64,000 bases of DNA from a virus (taxonomy: Duplodnaviria > Caudoviricetes). Under the pieces are notes generated by a model that did no database searches, had not been told where the DNA came from, and saw nothing but the letters and a program-made list of their open reading frames with translations. Below are positions 11,599-63,757 of this stretch, piece by piece. Each line of letters begins with the position of its first letter. The first letter of the stretch is position 1. Position numbers and translations under genes: made by a program. Location of the stretch: the IMG/VR virus record IMGVR_UViG_3300021387_000688; one strand, given 5' to 3'.

Positions 11599-11814
11599 TT
11601 ACTCTTCTTCTGTCTCGTCAGGTTCGTCTTCTACCATATCGGCAGCTGACTTTAATTCCTCTGCGAGCCCTCTAATATATTCGGCCAACTCTGCATTTGT
11701 TTCAGAATTTGTATAACAACCTCTTACACAGTTTCTAACTTCATACATTAGAGATTCAAGATTAGAGAATGATTCTTCCAAATCATCCCTTACATTTTCG
11801 CTCCAACCGTCCAT
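11599..11814 (-). CDS. Small acidic hypothetical protein
   Basis: 71-aa ORF with AAGGAG RBS, overlapping the upstream gene. Confidence 0.7.
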   Translation of the reverse strand: MDGWSENVRDDLEESFSNLESLMYEVRNCVRGCYTNSETNAELAEYIRGLAEELKSAADMVEDEPDETEEE

Positions 11815-30425: not shown

Positions 30426-31388
30426 ATGTTAAAGATTACTAAAAGATCTGCTACAATAGATGATTTTTTGAAAATGAAAAAGAAAGAGCCATTTGCAACA
30501 TGGCGACAGACATCTAAGCTTGAAAACTTCGGTTTGATGTTCGGTGCACAGTATTCAACATTCGCCCACATTCTTCAGACAGCAGAACCACCTTTTACAA
30601 TTGAAGATTGTAAAAACTATATCAAACTTGCACATGCAGAAGATGTTTATAATGAAATGTTGATGAAGGCTCAGAAAGGAAGACACCGTCTTTATGAAAT
30701 GAGACCTAATGTAGAATGTTGGTATTATGCAACAGCAAAAGTAATGCGTGAAGCATTCTTGAATGGATATAGTGGATTGAAAGAACGTATTGAACGTGAA
30801 CATAAGTTTGCTATTAAACATTACTATACAAGAAACTGGTATGGTTCTGTAAGATGGTACCCTGAGTTAGCTTATATGAATATTGATCCAATTGAGAAAA
30901 CATTGAAGGGTGCAGATAAAAAGTATTTTGCATATATCTTCTCTCATTTAATGAACAACGCCGCAAACGGTCCTGTACAGAGTGGAGAGACGGTATTTAT
31001 TTACAATGGTTGGATTCATGCAAATAAAAAGATGAAGGAATGGGATTTAAGATCTCAGATTTGTAATACAATTCATGACTCTTTGGATGCATATTTGTGG
31101 AAGCCAGAAAAAGAATTAATGAAGGCTTTGATTAATGCAAGTGTACATGATAAGATTCGTTATCCTCATGAAAATGTATTCCACTTCATGGAACCTGAAA
31201 TCTCTGACATTAGAGATTATGAACATATTACAGGTTATAAAGAAGGGGAGTTTACAGGAGATGAAAAGATCTTAGGACACTTCTATAAACATGGTGAAGA
31301 AGAGAAAGCAGCCCCAATTGCAGATGCTCTTAAAGCTTATAATGAAACTTGGGGAACCAATTGGGAATGGACATTGCCATTAATTTAA
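30426..31388 (+). CDS. polA: Family A DNA polymerase, C-terminal fragment (motifs B and C)
   Basis: RQTSKLENFGLMFG (motif B), AANGPVQS, TIHDSL (motif C); own GGAGG RBS. Confidence 0.92.
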   Translation: MLKITKRSATIDDFLKMKKKEPFATWRQTSKLENFGLMFGAQYSTFAHILQTAEPPFTIEDCKNYIKLAHAEDVYNEMLMKAQKGRHRLYEMRPNVECWYYATAKVMREAFLNGYSGLKERIEREHKFAIKHYYTRNWYGSVRWYPELAYMNIDPIEKTLKGADKKYFAYIFSHLMNNAANGPVQSGETVFIYNGWIHANKKMKEWDLRSQICNTIHDSLDAYLWKPEKELMKALINASVHDKIRYPHENVFHFMEPEISDIRDYEHITGYKEGEFTGDEKILGHFYKHGEEEKAAPIADALKAYNETWGTNWEWTLPLI

Positions 31389-32558: not shown

Positions 32559-35500
32559 ATGCAAAAGAAACAAAACGATTCTTACACAGGAGATGCAATC
32601 ACAAATAACATCAAATATGCAGATAATGAATGGCAGGCTCATGGTACAGTAGACCGTGGTTCTATGTTCTTAACTGAGCCTCTTTTAGGTTTGTTATATG
32701 CAGGTAAGAAATATGATAAAGATTTAGGGGATTATAAAGATTATGTACCTCGTGGTAGTATGTCTAGTACTGCAGGTTTGGATGCAAATGCAACTGCATT
32801 AGCAAGAGCAAAATTTCAGATTGAACCAGCCCGTTTAAGTCATGACTTGCTATTATTAGATGCAACCTATTATGTATCTACTGCTAACAGTTCATTAGTA
32901 AACATTTTCGATGTCGATACATATATCAAAAAAGCTATTTCTATAGCTAACCCTATTTACGACGATCACGTAAATTACAAAGTTATACACTTAATTGATC
33001 CAGACAATGTAGATGAAAACCTTACTGTAAAGGATTTCTTAAAACAAGTGCATCCAAAAGCCGCTTTAGGTAAAGATATAAATGACGAGGATTTAGGTGT
33101 AGTATTTGAAAGATATTCTGTAAAAAGGACCGATAACTCTCAATTTACGTTAAACCCAAATACAAAAATTAAAGAGTTTTTAAGCCATAAGGATGAAGAT
33201 ACTCTTGAAGGAATTGCAGCAAAAGTATTCTATGAAGACTTTACATTACATGAACACGATCCTCTTTCTATTAGAAATCCTTTTGATGTAAGATCTGAAG
33301 AAAGGCGTCAATATTATCTTTCAAGATTCTTAGCCAATACAGTATCTCATTCTTTAGGAGTATCTGAAAACGGTTTAGGATATTATGAAATCTTAAATAA
33401 CATGATTGAAGATGCTACCTTCCATTCATATGGTACTGCAGAAGATACATGGCCAAAAAGGGTTTTCGGAGACGAAGCTCTTCAATGGAACCTAGAAAAT
33501 GCATATTCTTGGACATCTAATCTAGTAGGGGAGGATGATGAACATTTACCAATAGAAGATACTACAGAAACCCAAGATAATAAATACATAGAAGTGTTTA
33601 GAAGATTCTTAGGGGATAAATCTTCCAGAGCAAACTATAAAGAGTATTTGAGAAGAATGAATACTGCTATTTCTTCTATCTCAAAATACTGTATCGATGT
33701 ATATGTAGACTGGGATACAAGTGATCCTGGATCTATCAAAGACTCTTGGGGTATTCACCTTTTGAATGAAGAGTCTACTACAAACTTGTTCCAGGATAAC
33801 AGCCACAACTATAGGCTTTTCAATACTGCAGCTTTAGGTTATAAATTGGCAGATGCTCTTATTTCTTTAAGAACATTCTTAGGTGGTTTCTATCACATGT
33901 TCTCTGCTTCAGGAGGAGATTCTGAACAAGCTACATATGTTATCCCTTATGATACCCCTATTTATGAAAGATCTGTTAACACTACTCCTATAGGAGCATT
34001 ATGTGAAGGTAACGTAGATTGGAATGGTTCAGGAGAAAATCCATTTTATAGACAAAATACTTATGTTACAATAGATACATTAAACAACTTGTATAGATTG
34101 GGACATGGCATTAAAGGAGACATCGTCGCCAGTGATGATTATCCAAGTTCTTATGCATTTGAAGCTGAAATTAAAGAATGGTTGTCAAACGAAACTCTTA
34201 TGATTAAAGCACCTGTATATGGTGACTATGTAGAAGAGTTGAACTTCATGCAGGATTTGAACCCAGATTCTGATGTTAACTTCGCCAACTTAAGGATTAA
34301 GAAAACTTCTATTCCTTATAAAAATTCTCAGGATTCTAAATATGAAGAACCCTTCGTAATGAGAACTAATCCTCTTGTCAACCGGGAAAAGGAAAACAAA
34401 AAAGGATATGGAGTACATGCATCTGAAGCTTTGGCAGCTGTAGGTGATAACCCAGATGGATTAAATTGGGGAGAAAATGAACCCAAAACTTCTCATGTTA
34501 TCCCTCCTTTCTTATATGACTATGATAAGAGAAATGAAGAAGATTTCTTAGAGGCAGATGAAAGGCTTTTAAGTAAAGAAGGGGCTAAACAAAGGGTTGC
34601 AAACCCAGCAGGTAATTCTGTAATAGAATCTAGAATAGAATCTCCTACAATTGATGAATTGTGGACATTCTTGAAATACTTAACAGAATCTGACGGTAAT
34701 GTAAATGATTCTAATAGATTACCTTCTTTCTATGGTATCGATAAAAAGTTTATCAAAAACAGCTTAATAACAAAAGAGGATTTTGCAAATACAGTAAACC
34801 CAATGGCCGCTGAAGATAACAATCGTAAGATTATTGATATCTTAAACTGGCACATTATTCCAGATACTAGCAAACCTCCTTACTATAGTTCTGAAGCCGA
34901 GAATGAAATACGTTTAGGTGGATATGAAGTTACAGAGTATATCGATAAGATTTACGACTATGAAATAAATCCATTCTCAAGAAGGGTTGTTAAGAAGGAC
35001 GGGGATAAGTATGAATATGATACAGAGGCCCAGTTCGATCAAGATGTTAACGGAAAGTATTCTAACAGTCATGATGAACCTACAGGTTATCTTGAAAAGT
35101 TGTACAACGAAACAATTGCAAACTTTGCTTTGTATAATGCATTAGAGGGAGATGAATCTTTATCAAATGCCGCAGAAATTGTTAGCATATTTGAAGATGA
35201 AAACTATGATAATTACTTTAATGCAGAAGCAGATAAACTTATCAAGACCCCTACTTCAGAAAAGAAGCTAGCTTATGCACAAGCCCAATGGTCTAATCAA
35301 AGAGTTAAAGCTTTCACTTTATTGAGTAGGATTTTGAATTATCATAAAGCTGATGGGGAAAATGATTTAGTAGATGGTAAAGATACTTCTTATCACAACC
35401 ACTATAAACATTATATGAACCATCCAAAAAACTTGAAATCTATCGAAAGGGATTTGGAAGCTATTCGTCAAAACTTGCAGAGCTTAGCTGAATTTGCTTT

Positions 35501-36008
35501 AGCTACCTTCACTTCTATGGGTTATGCAGATAGATCTACAAACCGTGGCACATTACATCAATTGCATAGAAACAGTTTTGATTTCAATTCTACTTTGATA
35601 GGTACAGATAAGTTTAATGGACCTATTAGCTTAGCAGATTTGAACAATACAATTGCAGATCCTGAACCAAATACTCTTTACAACTTTGCAGTTACCGTTT
35701 ACAAAGGAGAAGATTTAGCAAACTCTTTAAACAACTTAGTTGAACCAAAGGTAGATGGCGACTTGTTAGTATCTGCAATGGATAGAAAAGTTGTATTTGA
35801 AGATGGTGAGTTTGCAGAAAGATATAAAGAAGATGTTTATGATCATAATATCATAGATTTAAGAGGACCTGTAGTTAATACAAGGGCTCTTAAAGAAAGG
35901 TATAGTCCTAATGAGACTTTACTAAGTGAAGTATACTTGGCCGCAGACGGTACATGGAGAAGTATCCACGAACACCCAGTTGCACCTATTTTGGATTGCG
36001 AATTTTAA
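32559..36008 (+). CDS. Large putative virion protein
   Basis: 1149-aa acidic ORF between baseplate-like and tube-like genes. Confidence 0.6.
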   Translation: MQKKQNDSYTGDAITNNIKYADNEWQAHGTVDRGSMFLTEPLLGLLYAGKKYDKDLGDYKDYVPRGSMSSTAGLDANATALARAKFQIEPARLSHDLLLLDATYYVSTANSSLVNIFDVDTYIKKAISIANPIYDDHVNYKVIHLIDPDNVDENLTVKDFLKQVHPKAALGKDINDEDLGVVFERYSVKRTDNSQFTLNPNTKIKEFLSHKDEDTLEGIAAKVFYEDFTLHEHDPLSIRNPFDVRSEERRQYYLSRFLANTVSHSLGVSENGLGYYEILNNMIEDATFHSYGTAEDTWPKRVFGDEALQWNLENAYSWTSNLVGEDDEHLPIEDTTETQDNKYIEVFRRFLGDKSSRANYKEYLRRMNTAISSISKYCIDVYVDWDTSDPGSIKDSWGIHLLNEESTTNLFQDNSHNYRLFNTAALGYKLADALISLRTFLGGFYHMFSASGGDSEQATYVIPYDTPIYERSVNTTPIGALCEGNVDWNGSGENPFYRQNTYVTIDTLNNLYRLGHGIKGDIVASDDYPSSYAFEAEIKEWLSNETLMIKAPVYGDYVEELNFMQDLNPDSDVNFANLRIKKTSIPYKNSQDSKYEEPFVMRTNPLVNREKENKKGYGVHASEALAAVGDNPDGLNWGENEPKTSHVIPPFLYDYDKRNEEDFLEADERLLSKEGAKQRVANPAGNSVIESRIESPTIDELWTFLKYLTESDGNVNDSNRLPSFYGIDKKFIKNSLITKEDFANTVNPMAAEDNNRKIIDILNWHIIPDTSKPPYYSSEAENEIRLGGYEVTEYIDKIYDYEINPFSRRVVKKDGDKYEYDTEAQFDQDVNGKYSNSHDEPTGYLEKLYNETIANFALYNALEGDESLSNAAEIVSIFEDENYDNYFNAEADKLIKTPTSEKKLAYAQAQWSNQRVKAFTLLSRILNYHKADGENDLVDGKDTSYHNHYKHYMNHPKNLKSIERDLEAIRQNLQSLAEFALATFTSMGYADRSTNRGTLHQLHRNSFDFNSTLIGTDKFNGPISLADLNNTIADPEPNTLYNFAVTVYKGEDLANSLNNLVEPKVDGDLLVSAMDRKVVFEDGEFAERYKEDVYDHNIIDLRGPVVNTRALKERYSPNETLLSEVYLAADGTWRSIHEHPVAPILDCEF

Positions 36009-36068: not shown

Positions 36069-36752
36069 ATGGCACAAAAAACAGCTAATGGTACTTTTAC
36101 CGGAGTTACAGCAGGAGCTATACTACCCGGACACACACCAGCTAGTACATTGATGATGGCTACAGGCGATGCAATGGATAACATATTCGATGTTATGGTG
36201 GGTTGGCCAAGTGGATTAGACACTAGTGCTCCTATTGCAGAAGCATCTTATAGATGTGAAGGATTCAATGTACCTCAGGCAAAAACAAACACTCACAATG
36301 TAACATGGCATGGAGTTACAGTAAAGAAAGTAAGCTCTGGTATCAAGTTAGACAGAGAGCAGAAATTGAAATTCAGATATGATGCAAACTATGCACTATA
36401 TATGAGATTTAAAGCATGGAAGAGAATTACTGGAGATGTTAACACTAGTGGTGTAGCAAACACAGAATCCGCTTTAGGATGGTTTGCAGTAGTAGCACCT
36501 GGACAGGAATATAACTCTCAAAGTTTCTATAACATGATCACAAGTAACACAGATGATTCTGGTGATAATATCATGATTAATGATATGCAAAATATCAGGT
36601 TACTTTATTGGATTTTGAACAGTGCACAGGTAATAGATGTAGGAACCCCTCAATTCAAAAATCAAGGGGATGGTAAGGAAATGTGGTACGAGGTATCATT
36701 CATTTACGGTGATATGGCAGATCCATTTGAATCAGCTACTAAGGCAAGCTAA
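36069..36752 (+). CDS. Putative tail tube protein (gp19-like)
   Basis: N.FDV, C.GF.VP, L.FR.D.NY.LY..F.AW, V.F.Y pattern; strong GGAGG RBS; CTAAAT motif. Confidence 0.6.
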   Translation: MAQKTANGTFTGVTAGAILPGHTPASTLMMATGDAMDNIFDVMVGWPSGLDTSAPIAEASYRCEGFNVPQAKTNTHNVTWHGVTVKKVSSGIKLDREQKLKFRYDANYALYMRFKAWKRITGDVNTSGVANTESALGWFAVVAPGQEYNSQSFYNMITSNTDDSGDNIMINDMQNIRLLYWILNSAQVIDVGTPQFKNQGDGKEMWYEVSFIYGDMADPFESATKAS

Positions 36753-40168: not shown

Positions 40169-43100
40169 ATGGCTAAAGTAACTAACGAAACTGTTAATAA
40201 ACTCAATAGTACTGTTTCAAAAAACACCTCAGCAGTTGATAAAAGTACAAACGCTAGCAAGAAGAGTGCTTCTTCTAGTGATAAGAATACTTCTGCCGCA
40301 AATAAATTAGATAATACAATAAAAGCAAATACAAAAGCAAGTAATGCAAATGCAAACACTATAGATAAAGCTGCAGATTCAATAGAGAAATCTGTAGGCA
40401 TTTTAAAAGATGAAGGTATTAATCTTACAGAGTCTATAGATAATGTTAAAAAAGAAATTCAAGAACTTCCAGAAAAATGGCAAGAACTCCTCCAAACTGT
40501 TATGGAGATGAATAATAAGATTTTAGACTTAAATGAATCTAAACCTGAAATACCTGAAGGTAGTACAGATAATCCTAAAAGGGAAGAAGATGAAGAAAAA
40601 GAGTCTGAAAATCCTTTAGAAAAAGAATTTGAAAAATTGTCATTTGATACTAGCGGTACAGATATATCTATTTTAACTTCAGCTAACAATTTACCTAATA
40701 TGATGGGGGCCGGATTGGCTTTAATCCATAATAGCTTGCAACAAGTAGTAGGAGCTATTACAGATGGCTTCTCTCAAATGACCTCATTGTTAGTAGGTAA
40801 CTTAAATAAAGTAAACAATTCAGAAGAAGCTAAAAATACTGAAGCAGGGGAGAATCAAGTCACTCCATTAAAATCTTCAATCGCAGAATTCTTTAATGGA
40901 TTAGCTGGACCAATGCAATCAATTGCATCTGCCTTGTTGTTGGTATCTTTGGCCGCAGCTGTATTAAATGCAATACCTTTGGAAAGTATGACAGTTACGG
41001 TAACCATGCAATTGTTTACCTTCCTTACGGCCACCTTTACGGCCTTATCATTGATATCTTTAGGCTATCAAAAAGTAGCTCATATAGTTGATCCAGAACA
41101 ACAAGACAATCCTGCAAACCTTATGAATATGGTAAACCAGTTGTCTAAGATGATGTTGAGTATAGGAGCTATGGTTGCAGTTTCTGTAGCAATAGTAACT
41201 GTATTGAAATCTAATATGAGTTATGTAATGGCCGGTTTGGCTATGTCATTTGGAACAATGGCTTTGTCATTGATTTCTATTTCTTTACTTTCCGAAATGG
41301 CTTTACCAGAAGTACAAGAAGGTTCTAAACCAAATCAATTAATGCAAGATTTCAATAAGATGTTGTTAATTACATCTGCAATATTTTTGGTTAATGCTTT
41401 GTTGTTCCCTATCATAAGAGAAGGTGCTATTGCCTCTATGGTTATAATGGGAGTTATGTCTTTTGCAATTATCAAAATGATGGAATCTGTAAAAGAGTTG
41501 GCCGAAATAGATCCAGAAGTGCTAGAACAATTAAATGGTTTATTTACTAGAATAACAGTATTGTTTGGTATTATGGGTGCAATGGTTATTATATTAGGCT
41601 TATTACCTCTTAATGTAGTCATTCAAGGAACAATTACCGTAATGGCCATGACCGGTTTAATAGCCGGCCTTGTATATATGTTAACAACTTCTGCAAAGAA
41701 ATTAGATAGCTTAAAACCAGATACATTAGAGCAATTAAATACAATGATTATAGCATCCACTGTTATGATTGGATTGTTAGGATTGTTGGTAATTGTTTTA
41801 GGATTAATGCCTCTAACTGCTGTAATTCAAGGTATAGTGGCTGTAACAATTATTGCAGCTTTACCAATTGCCTTGATTAAAATATTTGCAAAAGTAGCTC
41901 AACAATCTTCCCAGTTGGTACAAGCCTTAGAAGGTATAGTTATTGCAACTGTAGTATCCCTTGCTACTGCAGGTTTAGCTTGGTTGTTAATTACATTACT
42001 TGGGGGATTTACAATTCAGCAAGTATTAACTACTATGGCCACAATGGGATTGATGTTAGCTTTATCTTTAGTAGTTACTGGAGCCATTGTAATATTAGGA
42101 GTAATATTTGCAGCATTGATTAGTGGACCTCAAGCCGCTCTAATACCTATGGCTATTGTAGGTATAGCGATTGCAGGTACTGTTTCATTAGCTATTGCAG
42201 GATTTGCTAGACTACTTTCTTCCATATTTGGTAGCGAAGAAGAAGCTATCAAAGCTCAACAAGCTGCAAAAGCAGTTATGATGACAGCCATTGCATTAAC
42301 TACAATTGCAGTATCTATTGTAACTATTGGTGCTTTAGCTATTCCAATGATGATTGCTATGCCATTAGCTCTTACGGCTTTGGAAGGACTAACAAGATTT
42401 ATAAATACATTAAATGCACCAGAAGGTATTTTAGCTATATTGGCCGCTAGTGGTCAAATGGACTTATCTGGCGTATACGCTCAGGTAGCTAACATTTCTA
42501 GACTTTGTATCGCATTAGCCACATTGAATATACCCCTTTCAATATTGGCACTTAATGCACCTTTGTTGTTAATATCTTTAAGTATTTGTACCACCTCAAT
42601 GTTTATGATAGGTGCAAGTTTAGTATTACTTTCAGGCTCATTGAGAGTAATTCAAGCTTTAACATTTGTAGATGTAAGTCCAAAGATTACAGAATTAAGT
42701 AATGCCATCCAATCATTGAATAATTTGGCTCAGGTTGTTAGCAACTTTACAGGAATGGATATAGCTAAAGTATTAATGGTAAAAGCAGCTCTTGGCTATG
42801 TAGCATCCTTTGAAAAATCTTTAGGTAGAATTGGCAATAATGCCGCAACTGAAAATATTGTAAACTTAACAAATAATTTATCAAACTTGGCTAATACAGC
42901 TCCAGGATTGAATGCACTTGCCGAAGCTATTACAAGAGTATCTGCCGCCACTGCAAGTCTAAATCAAGTTCAAAATTCAAATGCTCAAAGTATAGAAAGA
43001 CTTACAGGTCAAGCCGCAAGTAGGAATGAATTCTTAAGCAACCCTTCTTTGAGACAAGAAAGTTCTAATAAATCCAATTCATCTAACTTTGAACCAATCT

Positions 43101-43231
43101 TGGATGCATTAAACAAAGTGGTTAGTAGATTAGAGGATTTGAAGAATTCCCAAGACGCTAACAATTCAAGATTGAATTCTTTGATAGTAACTATGGATGG
43201 TATCGGTCAAAGGATGAGTCTCAATATATAA
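40169..43231 (+). CDS. Putative tail tape-measure protein
   Basis: 1020 aa, Ala/Leu/Ile-rich repeated hydrophobic helices, downstream of tube and chaperone genes. Confidence 0.7.
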   Translation: MAKVTNETVNKLNSTVSKNTSAVDKSTNASKKSASSSDKNTSAANKLDNTIKANTKASNANANTIDKAADSIEKSVGILKDEGINLTESIDNVKKEIQELPEKWQELLQTVMEMNNKILDLNESKPEIPEGSTDNPKREEDEEKESENPLEKEFEKLSFDTSGTDISILTSANNLPNMMGAGLALIHNSLQQVVGAITDGFSQMTSLLVGNLNKVNNSEEAKNTEAGENQVTPLKSSIAEFFNGLAGPMQSIASALLLVSLAAAVLNAIPLESMTVTVTMQLFTFLTATFTALSLISLGYQKVAHIVDPEQQDNPANLMNMVNQLSKMMLSIGAMVAVSVAIVTVLKSNMSYVMAGLAMSFGTMALSLISISLLSEMALPEVQEGSKPNQLMQDFNKMLLITSAIFLVNALLFPIIREGAIASMVIMGVMSFAIIKMMESVKELAEIDPEVLEQLNGLFTRITVLFGIMGAMVIILGLLPLNVVIQGTITVMAMTGLIAGLVYMLTTSAKKLDSLKPDTLEQLNTMIIASTVMIGLLGLLVIVLGLMPLTAVIQGIVAVTIIAALPIALIKIFAKVAQQSSQLVQALEGIVIATVVSLATAGLAWLLITLLGGFTIQQVLTTMATMGLMLALSLVVTGAIVILGVIFAALISGPQAALIPMAIVGIAIAGTVSLAIAGFARLLSSIFGSEEEAIKAQQAAKAVMMTAIALTTIAVSIVTIGALAIPMMIAMPLALTALEGLTRFINTLNAPEGILAILAASGQMDLSGVYAQVANISRLCIALATLNIPLSILALNAPLLLISLSICTTSMFMIGASLVLLSGSLRVIQALTFVDVSPKITELSNAIQSLNNLAQVVSNFTGMDIAKVLMVKAALGYVASFEKSLGRIGNNAATENIVNLTNNLSNLANTAPGLNALAEAITRVSAATASLNQVQNSNAQSIERLTGQAASRNEFLSNPSLRQESSNKSNSSNFEPILDALNKVVSRLEDLKNSQDANNSRLNSLIVTMDGIGQRMSLNI

Positions 43232-43258: not shown

Positions 43259-46200
43259 ATGAACATCATAACAGATATACATGAACGAGCGGCCTACAAT
43301 AAGCCTATAACACACTTTGATTCCCCTAAAGGAATAGGTCAAATTACTGCAAAAGATGTAGCAGGTTGGGCAGAATTAAACAGCTTAGTATACGGTGCCG
43401 AGAATTATAGTTCTTTAACTTATAACAATAATGTTGATGCAAATCCAGATATGGTAAAATCTACAAGTGCTGCAATTATGCAAGCACCTGACGAAACTTT
43501 TAGTACCATTTTAACAGAAGAAGCTCAACAAGTACAGGGTCAAGTTAATAGTTATGTATCTAAGAACTTTGTACAAATGTTCTATGAAACTTACATGGCC
43601 CCAATCAATACAAAAGATGTAAATAATCGTTTAGGAAAAGTATTAGGAGTTGTATCAGATATGCACTCCTTAATACCAAATGGTGTTCCTGGTATTATGG
43701 CGGCAGATAATACTGCATCTTGGAAAACTACTGAAAACTTTTCTTTTAAGTTCTCTGAAGGATTGTCTAAATCCCACCCAGACCCTTATAAAACAAGAAC
43801 ATTAGATGGAGCCAAATGGGTAACCACTGCTTATAGAGCTTGGTGGGCTCCAGGAGGTTGGATAGGAAATCCTGCAGCAACAGATGAATGGAGGTGGCAA
43901 AACGGTAGATGGGAAAGAGGACATTTTGACGGTGGAGAAGAAATATTTACAGAATATCACTCTTTAGCTTTCCCTCCATATCATAGTCATGAAGTTGTAA
44001 ATACTGAAAACTTATTTGAACCTAAAGCATCTGAAACTGAAAATGCTACTGTATCTTTAAGAGAGTATAAGGCAGATAGAACTTACGATATGGAAAACCT
44101 TCTTTATAAGAAAGGTATCGGTACATATCGTACACCTGCTTTTAAGGCAATCAATGATAACATTCAAACATTGCAATTGTTTTTCAACAGGTGTTTTGGA
44201 ATAGAATCTACCTATATCAATGAGTGGGATGAATCTCTTTACATTCAGGAAGGTTTGTGTAACGTAAGACAAACTACAGATGCAGATGGTAACACCATTA
44301 GTGCACCTTCATTCGTAACTACATTAACTTATGGTTTGTTAGACGATGCTCCAGTACCAGGGGTTAAAGGAAGTTCTGAAGTAGACTTAAATAAAATTAC
44401 TCCTTTCGCTTCTTGGAATATGGCAGTATCTACAAGGTCCGGAGTAGATTATGTAACCACAGCTCAACATTGTAATGAGATGGATTATATGATCAAAGAG
44501 TATCCTCTTTCTACCTATTGGTATCCAGAATATTCTGGACAGAATTTAGGCGACATGAATGTATCTAGATACATTGATGATATGTTTGCTTATAGGGAAA
44601 ATGGAGCGAACTGGGATAAAAATGTTTCTAGAAATTATACAAGTGCTATAAAATACGGTAGTTTGGATTCTTCTACAAAATCTTTACTTGAAGTTATAAA
44701 CTATACAGATGATAAGCAAGCAGTGTTGTCAGGAATGAACGCCACCGATAAAGATGGTAAACTTTATTTATTACGTACAGATGGTGCCTACGTCAATGAT
44801 GGTTATGGAGGTAACGCTTATAGTTATTTACCTTTCTGGAGACAATTCTTTACATCTGCAGAAGACGGATTATCCGATATCGATATCTTGATGCAAGATG
44901 TTTTATACAATGATCAAGATTACAATTCATATTTGGATATTGGTCACAGAATTATAGAAATGACTACAAGTGATAATTCTAAATTCTGGGATTACTTAAA
45001 TCAAAGATCTGCTACATTTAATCCTTTACCCCCAGCTGCCTCTCAAATATCTCAAGATAATAATGCAAGTCTAATACAGGATGCTTCTAGTTATGGTAAT
45101 ATAAAAATTGATATTGGAATCGCGTCATTTGAAATTCCTCATACAGCTCTTCTTAAAGCTTGGGCAAATAAAGATAAAAATACTAGAGCTGCAATGAACA
45201 AGGCTAACCAAACAGGTGGTATGGATAATGCAGTATCTGTAGTCAACAGTAATTTGAAACCTACTAAGAAGAAAGCTTCTTATGTAGAAGATGTAAATGG
45301 TGCGCCTCAAGTAGTAAATGAATATACCCCAGAAGAGGATGATGACGAGGCTGCAAAATCTGCATTAAGTTATGGTGCAGGTGTAAATAATTATTCTCCA
45401 TTCTTGTATGGAGGACCTCACGGTCAATATTTAAGTCCTTTAACATTGGAAGGATATTGTCAAGATGAAAATAGATTTTTAGCAACTGTTCCTACTCAAG
45501 ACTCTTATACGTATTATCACAATGGTATTGATAAAAACTATTTGAACCGCACTTATAGTAACTTTACAAAGAACTATAAGAATAGAGGTAATTTCTATGA
45601 TAAGATAACCGCAGTTACTCCTAATGAAAGAGAATTGCTGTTGACAGGTAATGTCAACTTTGGTTTCCTTCCTAAACCCCAACCAAATAATTATAGATGG
45701 GTTTACTATTCAAATTACTACTACAACTATGAAATGGTTACTGGAGGGGAATATACTTCTAATGCAGGCACAGAAAGCGCCCCTCGTAGATATTGGGATT
45801 ATGCAGGTCGTAGAAATCATTATCATAATGGTCAATTAATACCTGCAACCCCTAGCTGGATGAACAATTGGTGGGGCAATGCAATTTGGGGATGGATAGT
45901 TACTTTTAGTAATTCCTCAAAGAGTACTTACAGTTCTGGTTACTTAAATGATGGGTATGACGATCACCACCATTATAGCAATACTTATGTATTAAGACAT
46001 TTTGGTAAATATTATTGGGAAGAAGATGTAAACTTGGCTCCAGACTTCCCTTATCAAGATTTTATGCTTTTACCTGTAGGCCAAAGTTTAAGTGATAGAG
46101 GTAACATCAATTGGGATTATATCAAATCTACAATAAACACAGATCATAACAACAGAATACAAACTGATCAATTTATATCTCATGAAACTTGGGAAGTAGA

Positions 46201-49200
46201 AGATAAATCTAAACCATGGAGATACCAGAGATTAATTAAAGTACAACACTACAATCCAGTTGAAAATATAGTAGATTGGAATGCACATTGTTGGTATTTA
46301 GTTACTCCAGATAAACACCCTTCTAACACTTGGGTAGATGGTACAAGATATGTTACATATTCCGAAAGAGGAAGCGCTTGGTATAATGCACTTGAAAGAA
46401 TGTGGAGGCCTAGCGCAGGTAACGAAATCTTGTGTACATTGCCTATAAATTCAGGCGGAGGCATTACTAACGTAGTTTGTGCTGTAGGTAGAATTATAAA
46501 AGACTTTACTTATGTATATAGATATGTATGGAGACTTCATTTAGGTTGGAGATGGAGTTGGAGATGGAGTTGGCACTGGTTCCATTTCCATTGGTGGGGT
46601 GGATTCTATTGGTATTGGAAGTTACACAGAATTGTTGGAACTGAAACAACCTACAACTTGTACATTGATACTAACCGTACAAGATATAACATACCTACAA
46701 AATACTTGATAGATAGAGAGGCTAAGGTAAACTCTTCAAGGAAGTTTGAATCTTCAAACCCAGTAGAAAGATATGCAACAGGGGAAACTGGAGGAGAATC
46801 TGGACATTTAGGCACTACTGGTGCACCTCTTTTATGCCCATGGGAACCTAGGTTTAAAGATTATTATGGATGGTATAATAACAGTAAGGCAATGCCAGGA
46901 GCTTATTGGAGTGACGAAGGTAACCAATATTACAGAGGTGGATATCATAGTGGTGCATTCTTAATGAGTAAAGGTATCTTCTTTGCAGATATGATTGAAA
47001 ATTATAGGAAGCACGGTCAGGAAGCTTGGTATTGTACTTCTACTGTTCCTATTGTAAAATCTAAGATAGAACATTTCTATATCACTGCAAGGACTAAGCA
47101 GTCTGTAGGTTGTAACAGATGGGGTTATGGAACTACTTCTTATGTTAATAACTACAACTATAGAACTGGTAGATATACTTACGGTCTTACAAATGATAAC
47201 TATTGGAAATATAGTGACTTCTATACTTATGATGATACCCATTATCATACATTATTGTGTTGGGCAGATAGAGCAAACTGGGTACCAAATAGATGGGCTA
47301 CTCATTGGACTTTGACAAATATCTTTAGAGAAATGCCAAGAACCAAATCTCTCATAGAATATTGCAAAGATGGAAATAACCCTACATTAGCTTGGTATCA
47401 TGCTACAGACCCATTTGATGTATATATCGACACTGCGCAACAGCAAATTCAATGGATGAAGCAGTTACACGGATATGTTGTTAATAATATAACTGATAAA
47501 AACATTTGGGATGTTTATCAAAAAGTTACAGATAAAAAGATTAAAAATGTAACTAAGATGAAGAATACCGCAGGTAGTTGGGATAGTAGTAAAATGGGAC
47601 CTAGTCCTTACTTTACAAATTCTTTTACAGAAGATGTAAATTACTTTGATGCTTTAGATGTAGTATATCGAGTATTCGGTGTTAACGCTTGGAACCCTAA
47701 GAAGAATACTATTGCAGAATTATTGGCAGAAAGAATTTATTACTTAGAGAAGTTTAGAAACAGAGCCCTTTATTTGAGAAATCAATTGTTAGTAGATTCA
47801 TTGCCAGCTGACATTGTAAGGCAATTCTCAATATTAGTTTCTAATACTAGGTTGTATCTAAACTGTGCACAGTGTTATGGAAGGACTGTAGAAAACACTT
47901 CTTATTGGGGTAATGAATGGTATTTAAGTAATGTATTGATGTATAGTGATCACAATACTCGCTACGACCTTACGAGACATCCAGGTACTGTATTATGGGC
48001 TTACTTAAACGTATTGTACCAGGCCAGAAAGTATTGGGTTAACTTAAGATTGGATAAATCTTTTGGATCTTATTGGTTGTTGAGGGGATTGGAAAGAGTA
48101 TTGGTATTTACTATGGCTCAAGACACCGCCGTTGTACCTAACTTACAAGAAGCTTCTTCTGCAATTGATGTAGAAGATTCTACAAAGAAAACTTCTAGAA
48201 AGATACATTTCGTAGAATCTAGATCTAAGCTGGGAGAACTTATAGACAGTAATAATATAGAACCTACTTATACAAACGCCGTTTACATAAAAGTAGATTA
48301 CTTGAATGTATCAGATCCTACTACAAATGAGTTGTATAAAAATGGTAAGTTTGACAATAAGGAAATAAGATATATACCTGAAGTTTATAAGTGGGCTTAT
48401 AAACCTACAGACCAGGAATACTACGTAATGAGTGCTTACATTACCAGCCACTTGAAAGAATATACTCAAACAAGAAAACAAGTATTGGATGAAATATACG
48501 CTTGTTCTTATAGATTGACTGCAAATGATTATGACAAGCTCAGAACTTCTTTAACTTATTTGCAAGAGAGTTATATCGATAAGACTTTGTCTTCTTTAGG
48601 TACATTACCTGAAATGGAATACAGGCTTGAAGAATTGCAAAATGCATTACTTCAAGAAAAGTCCACTTACTATAACGGCCTTATTGAAGATTTGTTATAT
48701 CCTGTTTACATTAAGTTCGAACCAGAACATGTATGGACTGGTAATTATAAGGACGACGAGAAGGACGGAAACTACTATATCGATGAATGGCAGAAAGAAG
48801 AAACTGCTTATAAGGAAAGAACTCGTAGAGACTCTTTCGGAGAAAAACATAAACACACCGCTCCAATTTCTGCAGGTATTACATTCGATGTAATGGCTTC
48901 TATTGATGTTAACAAATTGTTAAATAACATTGGGGCATTGCAGACTGCTACTACTGCAGAAATATTATGTGAATGTAAAAACACAATAGACTTATGGAGA
49001 ATTGAGTTACCTAAGAATATGAAAGTACCTACAGCTTATTTGGAAGATAAGCCAATATTGGTACCAGCATTCTTAATAGACTTATCTGTTAATGGCGTAT
49101 TAGCTAAAGAAAAGGAACCAACTCCAAGGGACGTTTTGGTGGGTGTAAGTAGTACAGAAATGCTTCCTATCTTGGAACCAAGTGCAGGATTATTAACAGT

Positions 49201-49282
49201 TAATACTCAAGCCGCTTTAGGTATCGTAGATAAAGTTGACTTTGGAATTAATGTTAACGTTCAAGAGTTGAAAGATAAATAA
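43259..49282 (+). CDS. Giant putative virion protein (Trp/Tyr/Asn-rich)
   Basis: 2007-aa ORF following the tape measure; CTAATT motif upstream. Confidence 0.6.
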   Translation: MNIITDIHERAAYNKPITHFDSPKGIGQITAKDVAGWAELNSLVYGAENYSSLTYNNNVDANPDMVKSTSAAIMQAPDETFSTILTEEAQQVQGQVNSYVSKNFVQMFYETYMAPINTKDVNNRLGKVLGVVSDMHSLIPNGVPGIMAADNTASWKTTENFSFKFSEGLSKSHPDPYKTRTLDGAKWVTTAYRAWWAPGGWIGNPAATDEWRWQNGRWERGHFDGGEEIFTEYHSLAFPPYHSHEVVNTENLFEPKASETENATVSLREYKADRTYDMENLLYKKGIGTYRTPAFKAINDNIQTLQLFFNRCFGIESTYINEWDESLYIQEGLCNVRQTTDADGNTISAPSFVTTLTYGLLDDAPVPGVKGSSEVDLNKITPFASWNMAVSTRSGVDYVTTAQHCNEMDYMIKEYPLSTYWYPEYSGQNLGDMNVSRYIDDMFAYRENGANWDKNVSRNYTSAIKYGSLDSSTKSLLEVINYTDDKQAVLSGMNATDKDGKLYLLRTDGAYVNDGYGGNAYSYLPFWRQFFTSAEDGLSDIDILMQDVLYNDQDYNSYLDIGHRIIEMTTSDNSKFWDYLNQRSATFNPLPPAASQISQDNNASLIQDASSYGNIKIDIGIASFEIPHTALLKAWANKDKNTRAAMNKANQTGGMDNAVSVVNSNLKPTKKKASYVEDVNGAPQVVNEYTPEEDDDEAAKSALSYGAGVNNYSPFLYGGPHGQYLSPLTLEGYCQDENRFLATVPTQDSYTYYHNGIDKNYLNRTYSNFTKNYKNRGNFYDKITAVTPNERELLLTGNVNFGFLPKPQPNNYRWVYYSNYYYNYEMVTGGEYTSNAGTESAPRRYWDYAGRRNHYHNGQLIPATPSWMNNWWGNAIWGWIVTFSNSSKSTYSSGYLNDGYDDHHHYSNTYVLRHFGKYYWEEDVNLAPDFPYQDFMLLPVGQSLSDRGNINWDYIKSTINTDHNNRIQTDQFISHETWEVEDKSKPWRYQRLIKVQHYNPVENIVDWNAHCWYLVTPDKHPSNTWVDGTRYVTYSERGSAWYNALERMWRPSAGNEILCTLPINSGGGITNVVCAVGRIIKDFTYVYRYVWRLHLGWRWSWRWSWHWFHFHWWGGFYWYWKLHRIVGTETTYNLYIDTNRTRYNIPTKYLIDREAKVNSSRKFESSNPVERYATGETGGESGHLGTTGAPLLCPWEPRFKDYYGWYNNSKAMPGAYWSDEGNQYYRGGYHSGAFLMSKGIFFADMIENYRKHGQEAWYCTSTVPIVKSKIEHFYITARTKQSVGCNRWGYGTTSYVNNYNYRTGRYTYGLTNDNYWKYSDFYTYDDTHYHTLLCWADRANWVPNRWATHWTLTNIFREMPRTKSLIEYCKDGNNPTLAWYHATDPFDVYIDTAQQQIQWMKQLHGYVVNNITDKNIWDVYQKVTDKKIKNVTKMKNTAGSWDSSKMGPSPYFTNSFTEDVNYFDALDVVYRVFGVNAWNPKKNTIAELLAERIYYLEKFRNRALYLRNQLLVDSLPADIVRQFSILVSNTRLYLNCAQCYGRTVENTSYWGNEWYLSNVLMYSDHNTRYDLTRHPGTVLWAYLNVLYQARKYWVNLRLDKSFGSYWLLRGLERVLVFTMAQDTAVVPNLQEASSAIDVEDSTKKTSRKIHFVESRSKLGELIDSNNIEPTYTNAVYIKVDYLNVSDPTTNELYKNGKFDNKEIRYIPEVYKWAYKPTDQEYYVMSAYITSHLKEYTQTRKQVLDEIYACSYRLTANDYDKLRTSLTYLQESYIDKTLSSLGTLPEMEYRLEELQNALLQEKSTYYNGLIEDLLYPVYIKFEPEHVWTGNYKDDEKDGNYYIDEWQKEETAYKERTRRDSFGEKHKHTAPISAGITFDVMASIDVNKLLNNIGALQTATTAEILCECKNTIDLWRIELPKNMKVPTAYLEDKPILVPAFLIDLSVNGVLAKEKEPTPRDVLVGVSSTEMLPILEPSAGLLTVNTQAALGIVDKVDFGINVNVQELKDK

Positions 49283-54479: not shown

Positions 54480-56189
54480 ATGATGGTTTCAAAGATCAAC
54501 AAGCGTCCAGTAGCAAAACCAACAATTGCTAAAAAGGAAGCTGTTAAGAAAATGACAGAGAAAGCAGCACGTGCAGAAAAAGCTGCTTTAGTATGGAACA
54601 ACCACCCATTGTTTAAAGGTGAGTTGTCATCTATCAAGGAAGCAAAAGTTCGTCAGAATGCTGCTATCAACTTGACAAACCAGGCTCGTTATATGAAACA
54701 GTTGAACGAGCAGGAAACATCTACAGAGTTCCAGAGAATGGCACCTGCTAACATGATGAGATTGGTTCAGTTAACAATGACCAACTTGAATCGTGGAAAC
54801 GTATTCGCAGAGTACTCAATGGAAACTGCTCGTGATGCTATCTACTACATCAAGACATTCTTCTCTAAGAGCTCAGGTCCAAACGCTGGATTGATGGCTG
54901 AAAGATCTATGTCATATGATGGATCAGAAGGACAGGATCCATTCGGATTTGGTCCAAACGCTGATGAAGAATATCAGGTAGGTGGATACAATGGACGTAA
55001 TCCAATCTACGGTGGAAAGAAACGTGCTAACAACAACTACACAAACACAAACGCTCGTAAGGCTGTTTATGAAACTGTAGAATCTCGTTATGCTAACGAG
55101 TTGGCAAATGGTAAAGTAGAAGGTCTTACAATTTCTTGGGTTGGTGGTCCATTCGGAACTAACGGTGAATTGTATGTTCCAGGACAGTCTACAATTTATG
55201 CAGGAACAAATGAACAGGATGTAATCGCTATTCAGGATCCTTCAACTCTTGAGTATTTCGTAGCTCAGAAGTATAAGGGAGCAACTGTAGTAGAATCTCC
55301 AAGATCTGCTGAAGGTGGTCCAGTTACTGTAACTGTTGACTTCTCTGGTCTTGTAGAAGGTGAAGCACCTGCTACTATTAACGGATATGCTCGTTTCGAT
55401 TCAGAAACAGACTATGAAGGAAATCACCTCGGTGAAGTAAACTTGATGATGAGCGTTGCTGAGCTTCGTCCTCACAGAACATCTATTGGTGTATCTTGGA
55501 CAAAGTTGGCTGAGATTACTCTTGATGCTTCTTTCAACACTCAGATCGACGAAATCCTTTTGACATCTGCAGCTGATACAATTCACGCTCAGATGGATTA
55601 TCAGGCATTCAAGGAAGCTTATGCTTTCGCTTGTACAAACCCTAAGACATACACAGTTCACTTCGATGCTGCTTACTCAACAGACACAACTGGTGACAAG
55701 GGTACAAAAGATAGCTATACACAGACTGCTCAGACATTGTCTTCTGCAATCGAATTAGCTGGTGCTGCTCTTTACAGCGACATCAAACGTGGTGCTATCA
55801 ACAAGATGGTAGTTGGTGTATCTGTAGCTCCATATTTGAAACTTAACTTAGGTTTCGAACCAAAGGGACTTCAGGATCCAACAGGTGTTTACAAGATCGG
55901 TGAATTGGACGGAATCGAAGTATTCAAGGCTCCAGTAGAAGTTATCCCAGATAACGAGATCTTGTGTGTATACAAGAACGCTAAGGTAGAAAACGACGTT
56001 GCAATCGTATATGGTACATTAGTTCCATTCGTAAGCAACAAGTTGGAATATCCTACATTCTATACACGTGCTGGTCTTGCTTCATTCGGTGATCGTGCCG
56101 TATTGAACAGAAAGTATCTTGCACGTATCGTAATCGATAACTTGAAGGATCGTTTCAAGGGAACAGCTACAAACCCAACAGGTGAGTAA
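54480..56189 (+). CDS. Major capsid protein, T4 gp23-like
   Basis: IYYIK, E.NL......L......I.VSWT..AE..L, IG.LDG..V, ILC.YK....D.A..YG..VP; strongly biased codon usage; AGGAG RBS. Confidence 0.85.
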   Translation: MMVSKINKRPVAKPTIAKKEAVKKMTEKAARAEKAALVWNNHPLFKGELSSIKEAKVRQNAAINLTNQARYMKQLNEQETSTEFQRMAPANMMRLVQLTMTNLNRGNVFAEYSMETARDAIYYIKTFFSKSSGPNAGLMAERSMSYDGSEGQDPFGFGPNADEEYQVGGYNGRNPIYGGKKRANNNYTNTNARKAVYETVESRYANELANGKVEGLTISWVGGPFGTNGELYVPGQSTIYAGTNEQDVIAIQDPSTLEYFVAQKYKGATVVESPRSAEGGPVTVTVDFSGLVEGEAPATINGYARFDSETDYEGNHLGEVNLMMSVAELRPHRTSIGVSWTKLAEITLDASFNTQIDEILLTSAADTIHAQMDYQAFKEAYAFACTNPKTYTVHFDAAYSTDTTGDKGTKDSYTQTAQTLSSAIELAGAALYSDIKRGAINKMVVGVSVAPYLKLNLGFEPKGLQDPTGVYKIGELDGIEVFKAPVEVIPDNEILCVYKNAKVENDVAIVYGTLVPFVSNKLEYPTFYTRAGLASFGDRAVLNRKYLARIVIDNLKDRFKGTATNPTGE

Positions 56190-60650: not shown

Positions 60651-60728
60651 GATAATCTTATTTAGTTTTCCTTAAAATCTGAATATCAATATAGAAAAAG
60701 AAACGGGATGGGAATTAAAAATGGCAAT

Positions 60729-60755
60729 AAAAAAGGCCTATACAACGTATAGGCC
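60729..60755 (-). terminator. Terminator of the topoisomerase gene
   Basis: GGCCUAUAC-guu-GUAUAGGCC-UUUUUU. Confidence 0.85.
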
Positions 60756-60774
60756 CGGAGGTACAAATTATAAC

Positions 60775-62475
60775 TTATTTGAACAATTTTTCAAACTGTT
60801 CCATCTGAGTTTTGCTATAAATTCTTTCAAGTGGCATATCGATTTTACGACACCACTTAGATACGATAGCTGGATCGATATAAGCACCTTTTGAAGTAGA
60901 TGCTGTAAAGTTCTGAGTCTTTTCTTTCTGAGAAAGATTCATTTTTGCAATATCGTACTTCTGCTTTGTATTTTCATTCTGTTCCTGAAGTTTCTTAACC
61001 TTATCTTTCCAACCTTCTTTCTTTGCAGCTTTCAAAGCTTTAATCTTAGCTTCGCGTTTTGCAATTGTTTCTTCAACTTTTGCTTCACGTTCTTTAAGAC
61101 TTTCTTCCTTCTCGGCAAACTTTGCTTTACGCTTTTCTTCTGCAACTTTGTTAACACCGCGCTGATGATTCAGTCTCTTTGCAACTTCCATATTTGCTTC
61201 TTCAAATGCAAGTTTCTTAAGAGCAATTGGAGAATCCTTAGTTACATGGAACTTCTTAACAGCTTCTTCCAATGCATTTGTCATTGTATAAGCGGCTACT
61301 GCAGTACGAGCAAGTTTAGGAGAGAAGATTCCGTCAAGCTCAGGTACAATTGCACCTATATAAGCCTTAATATCATTTTTGTCAGTTTTGAGCTGTCCAA
61401 ATTCTTTCCAATGCTCTTCAATTTTAGCAGCAAATTCTGTTTCGATTTCAGATACGTCGTGAACCGAATCCTTTCCAAGGAAGTCAAATTTGATTTTGTT
61501 ACCAGAACGTTTTACATCCTTTCCCCATACAAGTGAAAGAAGTCCTTTTGTTCCATTTGTAGTTGCTTTCTTTTCTCCGATACGGATACCTTTTTCAAAA
61601 AGAAGGAATACAGCAATTACAGTTCCTAAATCCTTTGCTTTCTTAGAATTGAAATCGTTCTTAACAGTTTCAAGAATCTTTCCGTAAGATTCTCCAAGTT
61701 CTGCACCAGCATCGTATTTTTTCATCTGTCCTTCAGTCTTTACAGAAGACTTTGCACTAAACATAATCTTCTTACGAGTTGAAGAATAAACTTTAATCAT
61801 TCCACCTTGAGCGTTTGGTACACCAACGACGCTCGGATAATCTGCACAGTGATGAGATTCTGGACGCCATTCATTATGCCATTTTGATTTTTTAGTTTTT
61901 GGATCAACGTAATTAATTACTTCATCCCCGCTGATCAATACTGGATGCTTTTCTGAATTTGTATTCAATACAACATCTTCTGCGGTTACTGCCATTTTCC
62001 AATAACCTGCATAAGGGCAACCTGGGCGACCTGCGTAAATTCCTTCAGGCTCCAATACCCAAGACTGTAAAGGCTCTTTCTCCCCATCTACTATTGCAAA
62101 GCCATATTTTTCTTTACGAAGCTTGTTTGCTTCTTTAGTTTTTTCTTTTCCTTCTTTATCAGCGTCTTTTGCAGCCTTTACTTCTGCATACCATGCACGC
62201 CATTTTTTGATTTCTGGATCTTCGTTTACAAATGCTGGAAGATTAAGATGTCTAGATTTTGTCAACCAATCAGGTCCACCGGCAGCTTCGATACATTCGA
62301 AAACATGTTTAATCCAATTTTCGTCTTGGAAACAAGGAAGTTCTGGATTCCTTCTACAGAAGTCTCCGAAAATTCTATTATAAAGAAGAGAGCCATCAGC
62401 GAAAGGAGGAACAGGTACGAGACCTGGTACTTCCACTGCTTCAAGTTCCAAAGATTTCATAGGTTCAAGTTTCAT
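60775..62475 (-). CDS. DNA topoisomerase IB, long eukaryote/archaeal type
   Basis: Catalytic pentad contexts GIRIG, FDFLGKD, K.ART, LNHQR and TSKGAYIDP; core motif EPEGIYAGR; coiled-coil linker; IYSKTQ end. Confidence 0.93.
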   Translation of the reverse strand: MKLEPMKSLELEAVEVPGLVPVPPFADGSLLYNRIFGDFCRRNPELPCFQDENWIKHVFECIEAAGGPDWLTKSRHLNLPAFVNEDPEIKKWRAWYAEVKAAKDADKEGKEKTKEANKLRKEKYGFAIVDGEKEPLQSWVLEPEGIYAGRPGCPYAGYWKMAVTAEDVVLNTNSEKHPVLISGDEVINYVDPKTKKSKWHNEWRPESHHCADYPSVVGVPNAQGGMIKVYSSTRKKIMFSAKSSVKTEGQMKKYDAGAELGESYGKILETVKNDFNSKKAKDLGTVIAVFLLFEKGIRIGEKKATTNGTKGLLSLVWGKDVKRSGNKIKFDFLGKDSVHDVSEIETEFAAKIEEHWKEFGQLKTDKNDIKAYIGAIVPELDGIFSPKLARTAVAAYTMTNALEEAVKKFHVTKDSPIALKKLAFEEANMEVAKRLNHQRGVNKVAEEKRKAKFAEKEESLKEREAKVEETIAKREAKIKALKAAKKEGWKDKVKKLQEQNENTKQKYDIAKMNLSQKEKTQNFTASTSKGAYIDPAIVSKWCRKIDMPLERIYSKTQMEQFEKLFK

Positions 62476-62531
62476 TATATTCTCCTATGTTAAAAATATA
62501 GCTTTTGCGGGTTTAAGAATTTTCGGAAAAA

Positions 62532-63735: not shown

Positions 63736-63757
63736 AAGGACTCTTTTTAGAGTCCTT
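63736..63757 (-). terminator. Intrinsic terminator
   Basis: AAGGACTCT-N4-AGAGTCCTT with T-tract on the minus strand. Confidence 0.75.

Follow-up and report, generated by a model that had tools for sequence, protein, structure and literature searches.

The stretch of viral DNA analysed here, 64,000 nucleotides from IMG/VR record IMGVR_UViG_3300021387_000688 (the window), carries on its minus strand, at positions 60775-62475, an open reading frame (ORF) that starts with ATG and encodes a protein of 566 amino acids (P0001) with the features of a type IB DNA topoisomerase (TopIB) of the long, eukaryote-like form. In the translation, the characteristic motifs are found in order: KYGFAIVDGEKE at residues 123-134, EPEGIYAGR at 142-150, EDVVLN at 166-171 and FDFLGKDS at 330-337, followed on the C-terminal side by ANMEVAKRLNHQR at 427-439, TSKGAYIDP at 527-535 and WCRKIDMPLERIYSKTQ at 541-557. 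The presence of such a set is far beyond what chance could account for. Three Pfam families cover the protein. Topoisom_I_N (PF02919) matches residues 94-204 (E 1.7e-13; 51.1 bits against a cut-off of 25), Topoisom_I matches residues 243-469 (E 1.2e-24, exceeding its curated cut-off) and Topo_C_assoc (PF14370) matches residues 505-562 (E 8.4e-14; 51.7 bits against a cut-off of 25.1); no further Pfam family was detected in the protein at E ≤ 1. Consistently, a phmmer search of PDB returned human Top1 as the best match (E 6e-37), with a single alignment across residues 95-561, followed by the Caldiarchaeum enzyme (6Z01, 5e-21) and then Leishmania Top1. An earlier reading of this DNA from its sequence alone (the sequence-only reading) had quoted these motifs and assigned the protein to the eukaryotic/archaeal type of Top1, and the translation and the domain and PDB matches bear out both statements.

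The catalytic pentad of human Top1 (R488, K532, R590, H632 and Y723) aligns with R298, K335, R390, H437 and Y532 of P0001. These five residues are unchanged in all 32 members of the clade in alignment A1, whose identities range from 36 to 83%, and also in 87 of the 87 rows, from all six groups, of a wider alignment. The equivalents of human R364 and D533 are likewise retained, as R150 and D336. The residue preceding Y532 is an alanine; it corresponds to human N722, a position tied to the camptothecin response (the title of PDB entry 1RRJ names a camptothecin-resistance mutant). Members of the phage clade have A or S here, whereas 21 of the 22 rows of the eukaryote-like group have N. Another feature of the clade is a set of three cysteines and one histidine, C40, C48, C61 and H208, kept in 30-32 of the 32 members and partly in sister lineages; archaea and eukaryotes have residues of the Ala/Tyr/Asp/Thr type at these positions. 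The four residues may form a clade-specific metal site in the cap. Ahead of the conserved cap block P0001 has 94 residues against a eukaryotic median of 276, and the eukaryotic N-terminal extension is absent. Taken together, the ORF encodes a complete and, by homology, apparently active long-form TopIB.

An AlphaFold2 (AF2) model built on the 32 clade members of A1 reached a mean predicted local distance difference test score (pLDDT) of 90.7 and a predicted template modelling score (pTM) of 0.79. The long coiled-coil linker noted in the sequence-only reading is present in the model as two long helices, residues 443-484 and 489-519, with pLDDT mostly of 83-94 in blocks of 10 residues and of 72 in one block. 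In a Foldseek comparison the whole model matched human Topo70 (1RRJ and 1K4T) with template modelling (TM) scores of 0.76 and 0.76 over ~600 columns, linker included, and within this whole-chain match the N-terminal third of the model superposed on the human cap. The short enzymes of variola virus and Deinococcus spanned the catalytic half only, over ~240 columns and with a query-normalised TM of ~0.3. The distance from the catalytic histidine to the tyrosine, 95 residues in the clade of P0001 and 91 in the human enzyme, has a median of 90 in the eukaryote-like group and of 68 in archaea; the linker of P0001 is therefore of eukaryotic length. Two other assignments were considered and discarded. 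One was a tyrosine recombinase or phage integrase, for which Pfam gives Top1 families only and the fold matches to XerH and Cre are weak (E ~0.2, TM 0.18). The other was a short-form TopIB of the poxviral, bacterial or phiRSL1 type, which does not fit a protein with cap, linker and Topo_C_assoc.

The whole-chain architecture of P0001 is that of general relaxing enzymes, represented by human Top1 and, by sequence, archaeal CsTOP1. Poxvirus TopIB is site-specific and packaged in the virion, and one may ask whether P0001 is a specialised DNA breaking-rejoining enzyme and not a general swivelase. It could be site-specific and virion-packaged, could serve in recombination or telomere resolution, or could counter host defences. 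TopIB chemistry is common to tyrosine recombinases, XerH and Cre do occur at low rank among the fold matches, the clade-specific Cys3-His cluster hints at an extra feature in the cap, and the gene lies near virion genes. Set against this, beside the architecture, are the restriction of Pfam matches to the three Top1 families, the retention of the pentad and of the R364 and D533 equivalents, and the position of the gene in relatives among replication and nucleotide-metabolism genes. A specialised role is quite improbable in our judgement.

The features of the TopIB gene and its surroundings, together with the recognisable genes of the window that have assigned positions, are collected in Table 1.

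Table 1. Positions in the window of the TopIB gene, its domains and predicted expression signals, and of other genes discussed in the text.
Feature	Positions	Strand	Basis
TopIB coding sequence	60775..62475	-	Three Top1 Pfam domains; human Top1 is the top PDB match by sequence and fold
Cap, core subdomains I and II (~aa 1-235; borders approximate)	61771..62475	-	Topoisom_I_N; AF2 model aligned to human cap; holds R150 and C40/C48/C61/H208
Catalytic core (~aa 236-442) with R298/K335/D336/R390/H437	61150..61770	-	Topoisom_I; residues invariant in A1 and in the 87-row alignment
Coiled-coil linker (~aa 443-519)	60919..61149	-	AF2 helices; aligned to human linker; His-to-Tyr distance
C-terminal domain (~aa 520-566) with active-site Y532	60778..60918	-	Topo_C_assoc; Y532 invariant
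Codons of C40 / C48 / C61 / H208	~62358-62356 / 62334-62332 / 62295-62293 / 61854-61852	-	Clade-conserved Cys3-His set
Shine-Dalgarno sequence AGGAG, 6 nt ahead of the ATG	62482..62486	-	Direct sequence reading
Predicted intrinsic terminator: 10-bp stem (5 G-C pairs), 3-nt loop, T-run; 19 nt past the stop	60726..60756	-	Terminator scan and sequence reading
Three co-oriented upstream ORFs: 229 aa (phrog_421, unknown function), 107 aa, 51 aa	62532..63683	-	ORF list
Predicted terminator closing the preceding transcription unit; upstream border of the putative operon	63736..63757	-	Terminator scan
T4 Gp23-type major capsid protein, 569 aa, 4.6 kb from TopIB	54480..56189	+	Identity to IMG/VR ORF; protein-atlas features
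Weak tail-tube match	36069..36752		
Flagellin, 283 aa	17242..18093	-	Flagellin_N 2.9e-40; Flagellin_C 1.4e-24
Family-A DNA polymerase, first part	28296..30422	+	Exonuclease and start of polymerase domain (profile 5-149)
Family-A DNA polymerase, second part	30426..31388	+	End of polymerase domain (profile 235-358)
GTP cyclohydrolase I (7.6e-44) and weak QueC-like match	8122..8835 and 11783..12964	-	
Giant ORFs of 2,665, 2,007, 1,020 and 1,149 aa	74..8071, 43259..49282, 40169..43231 and 32559..36008	+	No Pfam or PHROG match

The carrier of the gene is a tailed phage, as follows from the Gp23-type capsid gene listed in Table 1. The product of this gene shares 67.5% identity with an ORF on an IMG/VR contig, which in turn is a weak match to Pfam Gp23 (E 1.4e-4), and in a protein-language-model (protein-atlas) analysis it has a feature score of 0.97, with 225 of 256 features common to Gp23 capsid clusters that are 100% viral. 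The window has a G+C content of 33-38% and most of its ORFs are without annotation; the recognisable genes encode the split family-A polymerase, a 5'-3' exonuclease, a metallophosphoesterase, NrdG, GTP cyclohydrolase I, a QueC-like protein and a bacterial flagellin. NrdG and the product of the 229-residue ORF upstream of TopIB (phrog_421, 7e-32) match phage families. A relative in IMG/VR, a contig of 140 kb whose TopIB is 53% identical to P0001, is classed as viral and was rated 35% complete by CheckV, which places the genome of this relative at ~400 kb. The carrier is a T4-like huge phage of the sheep gut, of roughly 400 kb if the size of the relative applies, and the bacteriophage setting given in the sequence-only reading holds.

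A carrier of another nature, namely a giant plasmid-like element of the Inocle type, an archaeal or eukaryotic virus or a mis-assembled cellular contig, would be compatible with the many unannotated ORFs, with the binning of one relative in a metagenome-assembled genome (MAG) of Treponema, and with the neighbourhood of one TopIB lineage (P0172; see below) that is not phage-looking. A search with Terminase_6N also gave no match in the 140-kb relative, itself a fragment, nor in the Treponema MAG. All the same, such a carrier is very improbable in view of the capsid gene, the weak tail-tube match, the phage-family matches and the viral classification of the relative, to which may be added the Shine-Dalgarno sequence and intrinsic terminator of bacterial type and a flagellin of bacterial type, related to that of the Treponema MAG. 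As for the Inocles, these elements are described with VirB4/VirD4, Pol III and gyrase, and topoisomerase IB appears in that paper only in a reference on Deinococcus (PMC12340149). None of VirB4/VirD4, Pol III and gyrase was seen in the window, and in view of the capsid gene an element of this type is rejected.

Among 185,579 species genomes, the sole match at clade level was the 65-kb contig binned in the Treponema MAG. The phage flagellin, seen also at L001 4227-4508 and 5684-6535, is conserved in relatives at 77% identity. With fragments of flagellin that lie at the ends of contigs in the same MAG it shares 68% identity. Flagellin and MAG together give a weak hint that Treponema is one possible host; the flagellin itself may point to the host in this way, or may be carried by the phage for some other role. 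Some other features of the window deserve mention. The two adjacent ORFs of the family-A DNA polymerase are 3 nt apart and divide the polymerase domain between them. The GTP cyclohydrolase I and the QueC-like protein suggest a 7-deazaguanine DNA-modification pathway, as far as the sequence matches go. The four giant ORFs share a block with the weak tail-tube match and may encode virion or injected proteins.

P0001 is not an isolated sequence. A word-indexed search found ~55 full-length relatives at 45-98% identity on contigs of up to 425 kb, mostly from animal gut, below which the next matches fall to 25-29%. An exhaustive search of 1.84 billion representatives gave 815 matches at E ≤ 0.001, among them lineages of intermediate identity (30-40%). 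No match was found by tblastn in 50,697 GenBank phage records at 1e-5; a scan of IMG/VR with the single protein gave no relative and an alignment-based scan gave one. A search for longer homologues with residues 95-566 found nothing, which is weak evidence. The named cellular matches comprise the archaeal groups Bathyarchaeia, Nitrososphaerota and Aenigmatarchaeota and four eukaryote representatives (Camelina, Mugil, Capsaspora and Schistocerca). In addition, a 722-kb contig of an Acidobacteriota MAG (L024) carries, right at its end, part of a long TopIB of the archaeal type, which could be contamination, a mis-assembly or a bacterial copy.

Seven further sampled long-form lineages outside Archaea and Eukarya sit in phage-like modules, with T4-type genes in three of them (P0282, P0128 and P0221). 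The richest is P0221, in which TopIB is accompanied by a Gp44-type clamp loader, T4 RNase H, UvsY, UvsW, a UvsX-like recombinase and a ligase. P0128 has a clamp loader, a UvsX-like recombinase and an rIIA-like ATPase adjoining T4 rIIB, and P0282 a clamp loader and NrdD/NrdG. The neighbours are giant ORFs, an amidase and a radical-SAM protein in P0081 and P0303; GroEL, ClpP and a weak sheath match in P0269; and RNase H, an NAD-dependent ligase and a methyltransferase in P0295. P0059 has no annotated neighbours, two further lineages are on contigs too short to judge, and P0172, with leucine-rich repeat (LRR), Macro and SNF2 proteins, has a context of unclear nature. Two local arrangements were observed in these lineages. 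In two distant phage lineages (L085 946-9936 and L087 1-6623) the same unannotated pair of giant ORFs, of 2,239 or 2,241 and 751 or 758 amino acids, precedes TopIB on the opposite strand, with synteny kept. In P0128 (L091 7455-11424) TopIB is directly followed by the gene of a 922-residue HATPase_c_3 protein and then by a homologue of T4 rIIB, an arrangement resembling an rIIA-rIIB pair; on L085 a HATPase_c_3 protein is located two genes downstream of TopIB.

The evolutionary position of these enzymes was analysed with an overview tree of 242 rows (FastTree) and a tree of 87 rows and 534 columns inferred by IQ-TREE under LG+C20+F+G4 with posterior mean site frequencies (PMSF); the two agree. 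In the 87-row tree the clade of P0001 has supports of 100/100, as does its grouping with phage-borne sister lineages. Archaea (100/100) and the eukaryote-like group (97/84) join in an Archaea+Eukarya clade (100/99) that leaves the phage clade outside, and other phage-like lineages fall between the phage super-clade and the Archaea+Eukarya pole. When the phage clade was regrafted beside eukaryotes, archaea or both (42 rows, LG+F+G4), the likelihood dropped by 100-116 log units and the approximately unbiased (AU) test rejected each placement at p ≤ 1.6e-4, in a comparison that is less thorough in that the rest of the topology was not re-optimised. Membership of P0001 in the eukaryotic Top1 or the archaeal TopIB clade is rejected on these grounds. 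P0001 is part of a broad radiation of long-form TopIB genes that is separate from Archaea+Eukarya and whose carriers are huge phages, mostly T4-like.

The trees also bear on the origin of the gene. Ciliates, fungi and archaea abound in the rumen, and the eukaryote-like architecture, the linker length and the rank of human Top1 among PDB matches would all suit a Top1 captured recently from a rumen eukaryote (a ciliate or fungus) or an archaeon and carried as a passenger. Together, the Archaea+Eukarya clade and the AU rejection exclude recent capture from a sampled eukaryote or archaeon. Moreover, archaeal and eukaryotic sequences reach no more than 25-29% identity to P0001, the ~55 clade members reach down to 45% identity with deeper phage-borne sister lineages behind them, and the eukaryotic N-terminal extension is missing. 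Capture is the least probable of the alternatives considered, hardly to be reckoned with. The sequence-only reading had left the choice between an acquisition from another domain and a TopIB lineage of deep viral ancestry, and had proposed a phylogeny with eukaryotic, thaumarchaeal, bacterial and NCLDV TopIB as a check. In the trees obtained here the phage clade is separate from both archaea and eukaryotes, which favours the deep viral lineage and speaks against an acquisition across domains.

By homology to Top1, the cap and the catalytic core of P0001 would clamp around duplex DNA, and Y532, with R298, K335, R390 and H437 as its partners, would nick one strand to form a 3'-phosphotyrosyl link. 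The cut strand would then swivel, with the cap and the coiled-coil linker exerting friction on it (controlled rotation), before the nick is resealed, and neither ATP nor Mg should be required for relaxation. Positive and negative supercoils arising from replication and transcription of a very large genome would be removed in this way. T4-like phages had been noted in the sequence-only reading as usual carriers of a type II topoisomerase. In the IMG/VR relative, ORFs for a 632-residue GyrB-like and a 455-residue TopoIV-A-like protein lie ~46 kb from TopIB. TopIB is not a replacement for the T4-type topoisomerase II, because this related contig encodes both. The TopIB would thus work with the type II enzyme, not in its place.

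Signals around the gene fit a transcription unit (Table 1). The terminator scan detected 5 terminators against 1.9 expected in shuffled sequences, and predicted none on the minus strand between the three upstream ORFs and TopIB. Because these ORFs are co-oriented with TopIB and a terminator at 63757-63736 ends the preceding unit, the four genes probably make up one operon, with TopIB in last place and a strong terminator behind it. The gene is covered by contigs from sheep-gut RNA libraries (metatranscriptomes) of three studies. One, of 2,361 nt, starts at 61370 and reaches ~63729 (upper end calculated from its length), and a second stops at 60756; these contig ends lie near the predicted borders of the transcription unit. 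RNA runs X17-X20 contain small parts of the TopIB gene only and are taken as presence in RNA libraries, nothing more.

We put the probability that the ORF at 60775-62475 encodes a functional long-form TopIB of a T4-like huge phage of the sheep gut, which removes supercoils and acts alongside a type II enzyme, at about 85%. Several points weigh against this view. No terminase, portal or type II topoisomerase is found within the 64-kb window, and Terminase_6N gave no match in the 140-kb relative, which is a fragment. Transcription is not proven, because the RNA runs are available as contigs only and RNA libraries can contain DNA. Most rows of the trees are metagenomic proteins without an organism name, sequences from Asgard archaea, bacteria or giant viruses may be present in the eukaryote-like group, and carriers were sampled for about ten lineages only.

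The papers searched assign long TopIB only to eukaryotes and to the archaeal groups Thaumarchaeota, Aigarchaeota and Bathyarchaeota, and describe the enzymes of viruses and bacteria as short (PMC4824112, PMC8748870, PMC8185306); the archaeal long enzymes are the subject of Dahmane 2016 (PMC4824112) and Takahashi 2022 (PMC8748870). From this distribution it has been argued that the ancestor shared by Archaea and Eukarya already had the enzyme (PMC2621148). A paper on the Jug phage names topoisomerase IV only, and no TopIB (PMC12880540), and a 2024 review of archaeal DNA topology held no usable statement on TopIB (PMC11894792). In the literature searched, which left out most subscription journals, no description of long-form TopIB in phages was found, and hence no described clade of long phage or bacterial enzymes to which P0001 could be assigned. 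P0001 is a known enzyme family in an unexpected carrier, and its main interest is evolutionary: the long-form genes of huge bacteriophages, a large set with deep divergences, alter the known distribution of Top1 and supply the missing non-cellular sequences for rooting the TopIB family.

Reciprocal monophyly of phage and cellular enzymes cannot be read from the unrooted tree. A rooted analysis used the TopIBs of phiRSL1, PaBG and Lu11 as outgroup and 243 columns of the catalytic core. The outgroup attached among phage-borne lineages, leaving Archaea+Eukarya nested next to a lineage that includes P0221, a T4-like phage contig (SH-like approximate likelihood ratio test, SH-aLRT, 95 and 96). AU tests rejected a root on the archaeal stem (p 0.005-0.008) and on the eukaryote stem (0.025-0.030). 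The stem of Archaea+Eukarya was borderline (0.036-0.068), the stem of Archaea+Eukarya plus its nearest lineage, which separates cells and that lineage from the other phage lineages, gave 0.05-0.11, and the stem of the super-clade of P0001 gave 0.037-0.074. A root between cells and phages is thus disfavoured at a borderline level only. The root placement is treated as a lead, because the three phage enzymes used as outgroup are all of one kind, distant and on long branches, which makes long-branch attraction a real risk. That long-form TopIB is primarily a gene of huge T4-like phages, with archaeal and eukaryotic Top1 descending from within phage diversity, is a tentative idea that we consider rather unlikely. 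Such a viral origin or reservoir of Top1 becomes directly testable with the phage sequences, in parallel to proposals for the type IIA topoisomerases. Giant phages also pair a swivelase with a type II enzyme, like eukaryotic nuclei, as seen in the related contig, and compact, tail-less Top1 orthologues from mesophilic phages are on offer for mechanistic and inhibitor studies.

Comparison with characterised enzymes sets P0001 apart from each known group. The short TopIBs of poxviruses and bacteria (variola 2H7F, vaccinia 1A41, Deinococcus 2F4Q/3M4A) have the catalytic fold and chemistry in common with it, but are ~310 amino acids long, with a small, different N-terminal domain and no linker. 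The sequence-only reading had described bacterial and poxviral TopIB as short and linker-less. The TopIBs of phiRSL1-type phages are ~560 amino acids long and have the catalytic core only; length alone therefore does not set the long form apart. The phage-specific TopIB of these jumbo phages was noted by Iyer et al. 2021 (PMC7824862). Like P0001, the enzymes of phiRSL1 (ORF108), PaBG and Lu11 are phage-encoded, have 559-562 residues and possess the same pentad and a Topoisom_I core; unlike P0001 they have no Topoisom_I_N cap, no Topo_C_assoc and no linker (His-to-Tyr ~20), and none of the three was found with P0001 by tblastn at 1e-5. In these proteins, encoded at L104 592-2271 (phiRSL1 ORF108), L105 1267-2955 on the minus strand and L106 457-2142, the TopIB core is the C-terminal 250 residues, and the N-terminal ~300 residues are unrelated and have no Pfam match.

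The archaeal long TopIBs (Caldiarchaeum CsTOP1, 6Z01/6Z03; Nitrososphaerota and Bathyarchaeia) resemble P0001 in size (~540-570 amino acids), domains, pentad and the absence of an N-terminal tail. They are only 25-28% identical to it, have the shorter linker described above, and form their own clade, whose sister is the eukaryote-like group rather than the clade of the phage enzymes. Human TOP1/Topo70 (1A36, 1K4T, 1RRJ) shares with P0001 the cap, core, linker and C-terminal domain, the pentad, R364 and D533, and the fold (TM 0.76). At ~22-29% identity to the human enzyme, P0001 is distinguished by the lack of the charged N-terminal extension, by alanine at the N722 position and by its own C40/C48/C61/H208 set, and it is phage-encoded and lies outside the eukaryote clade.

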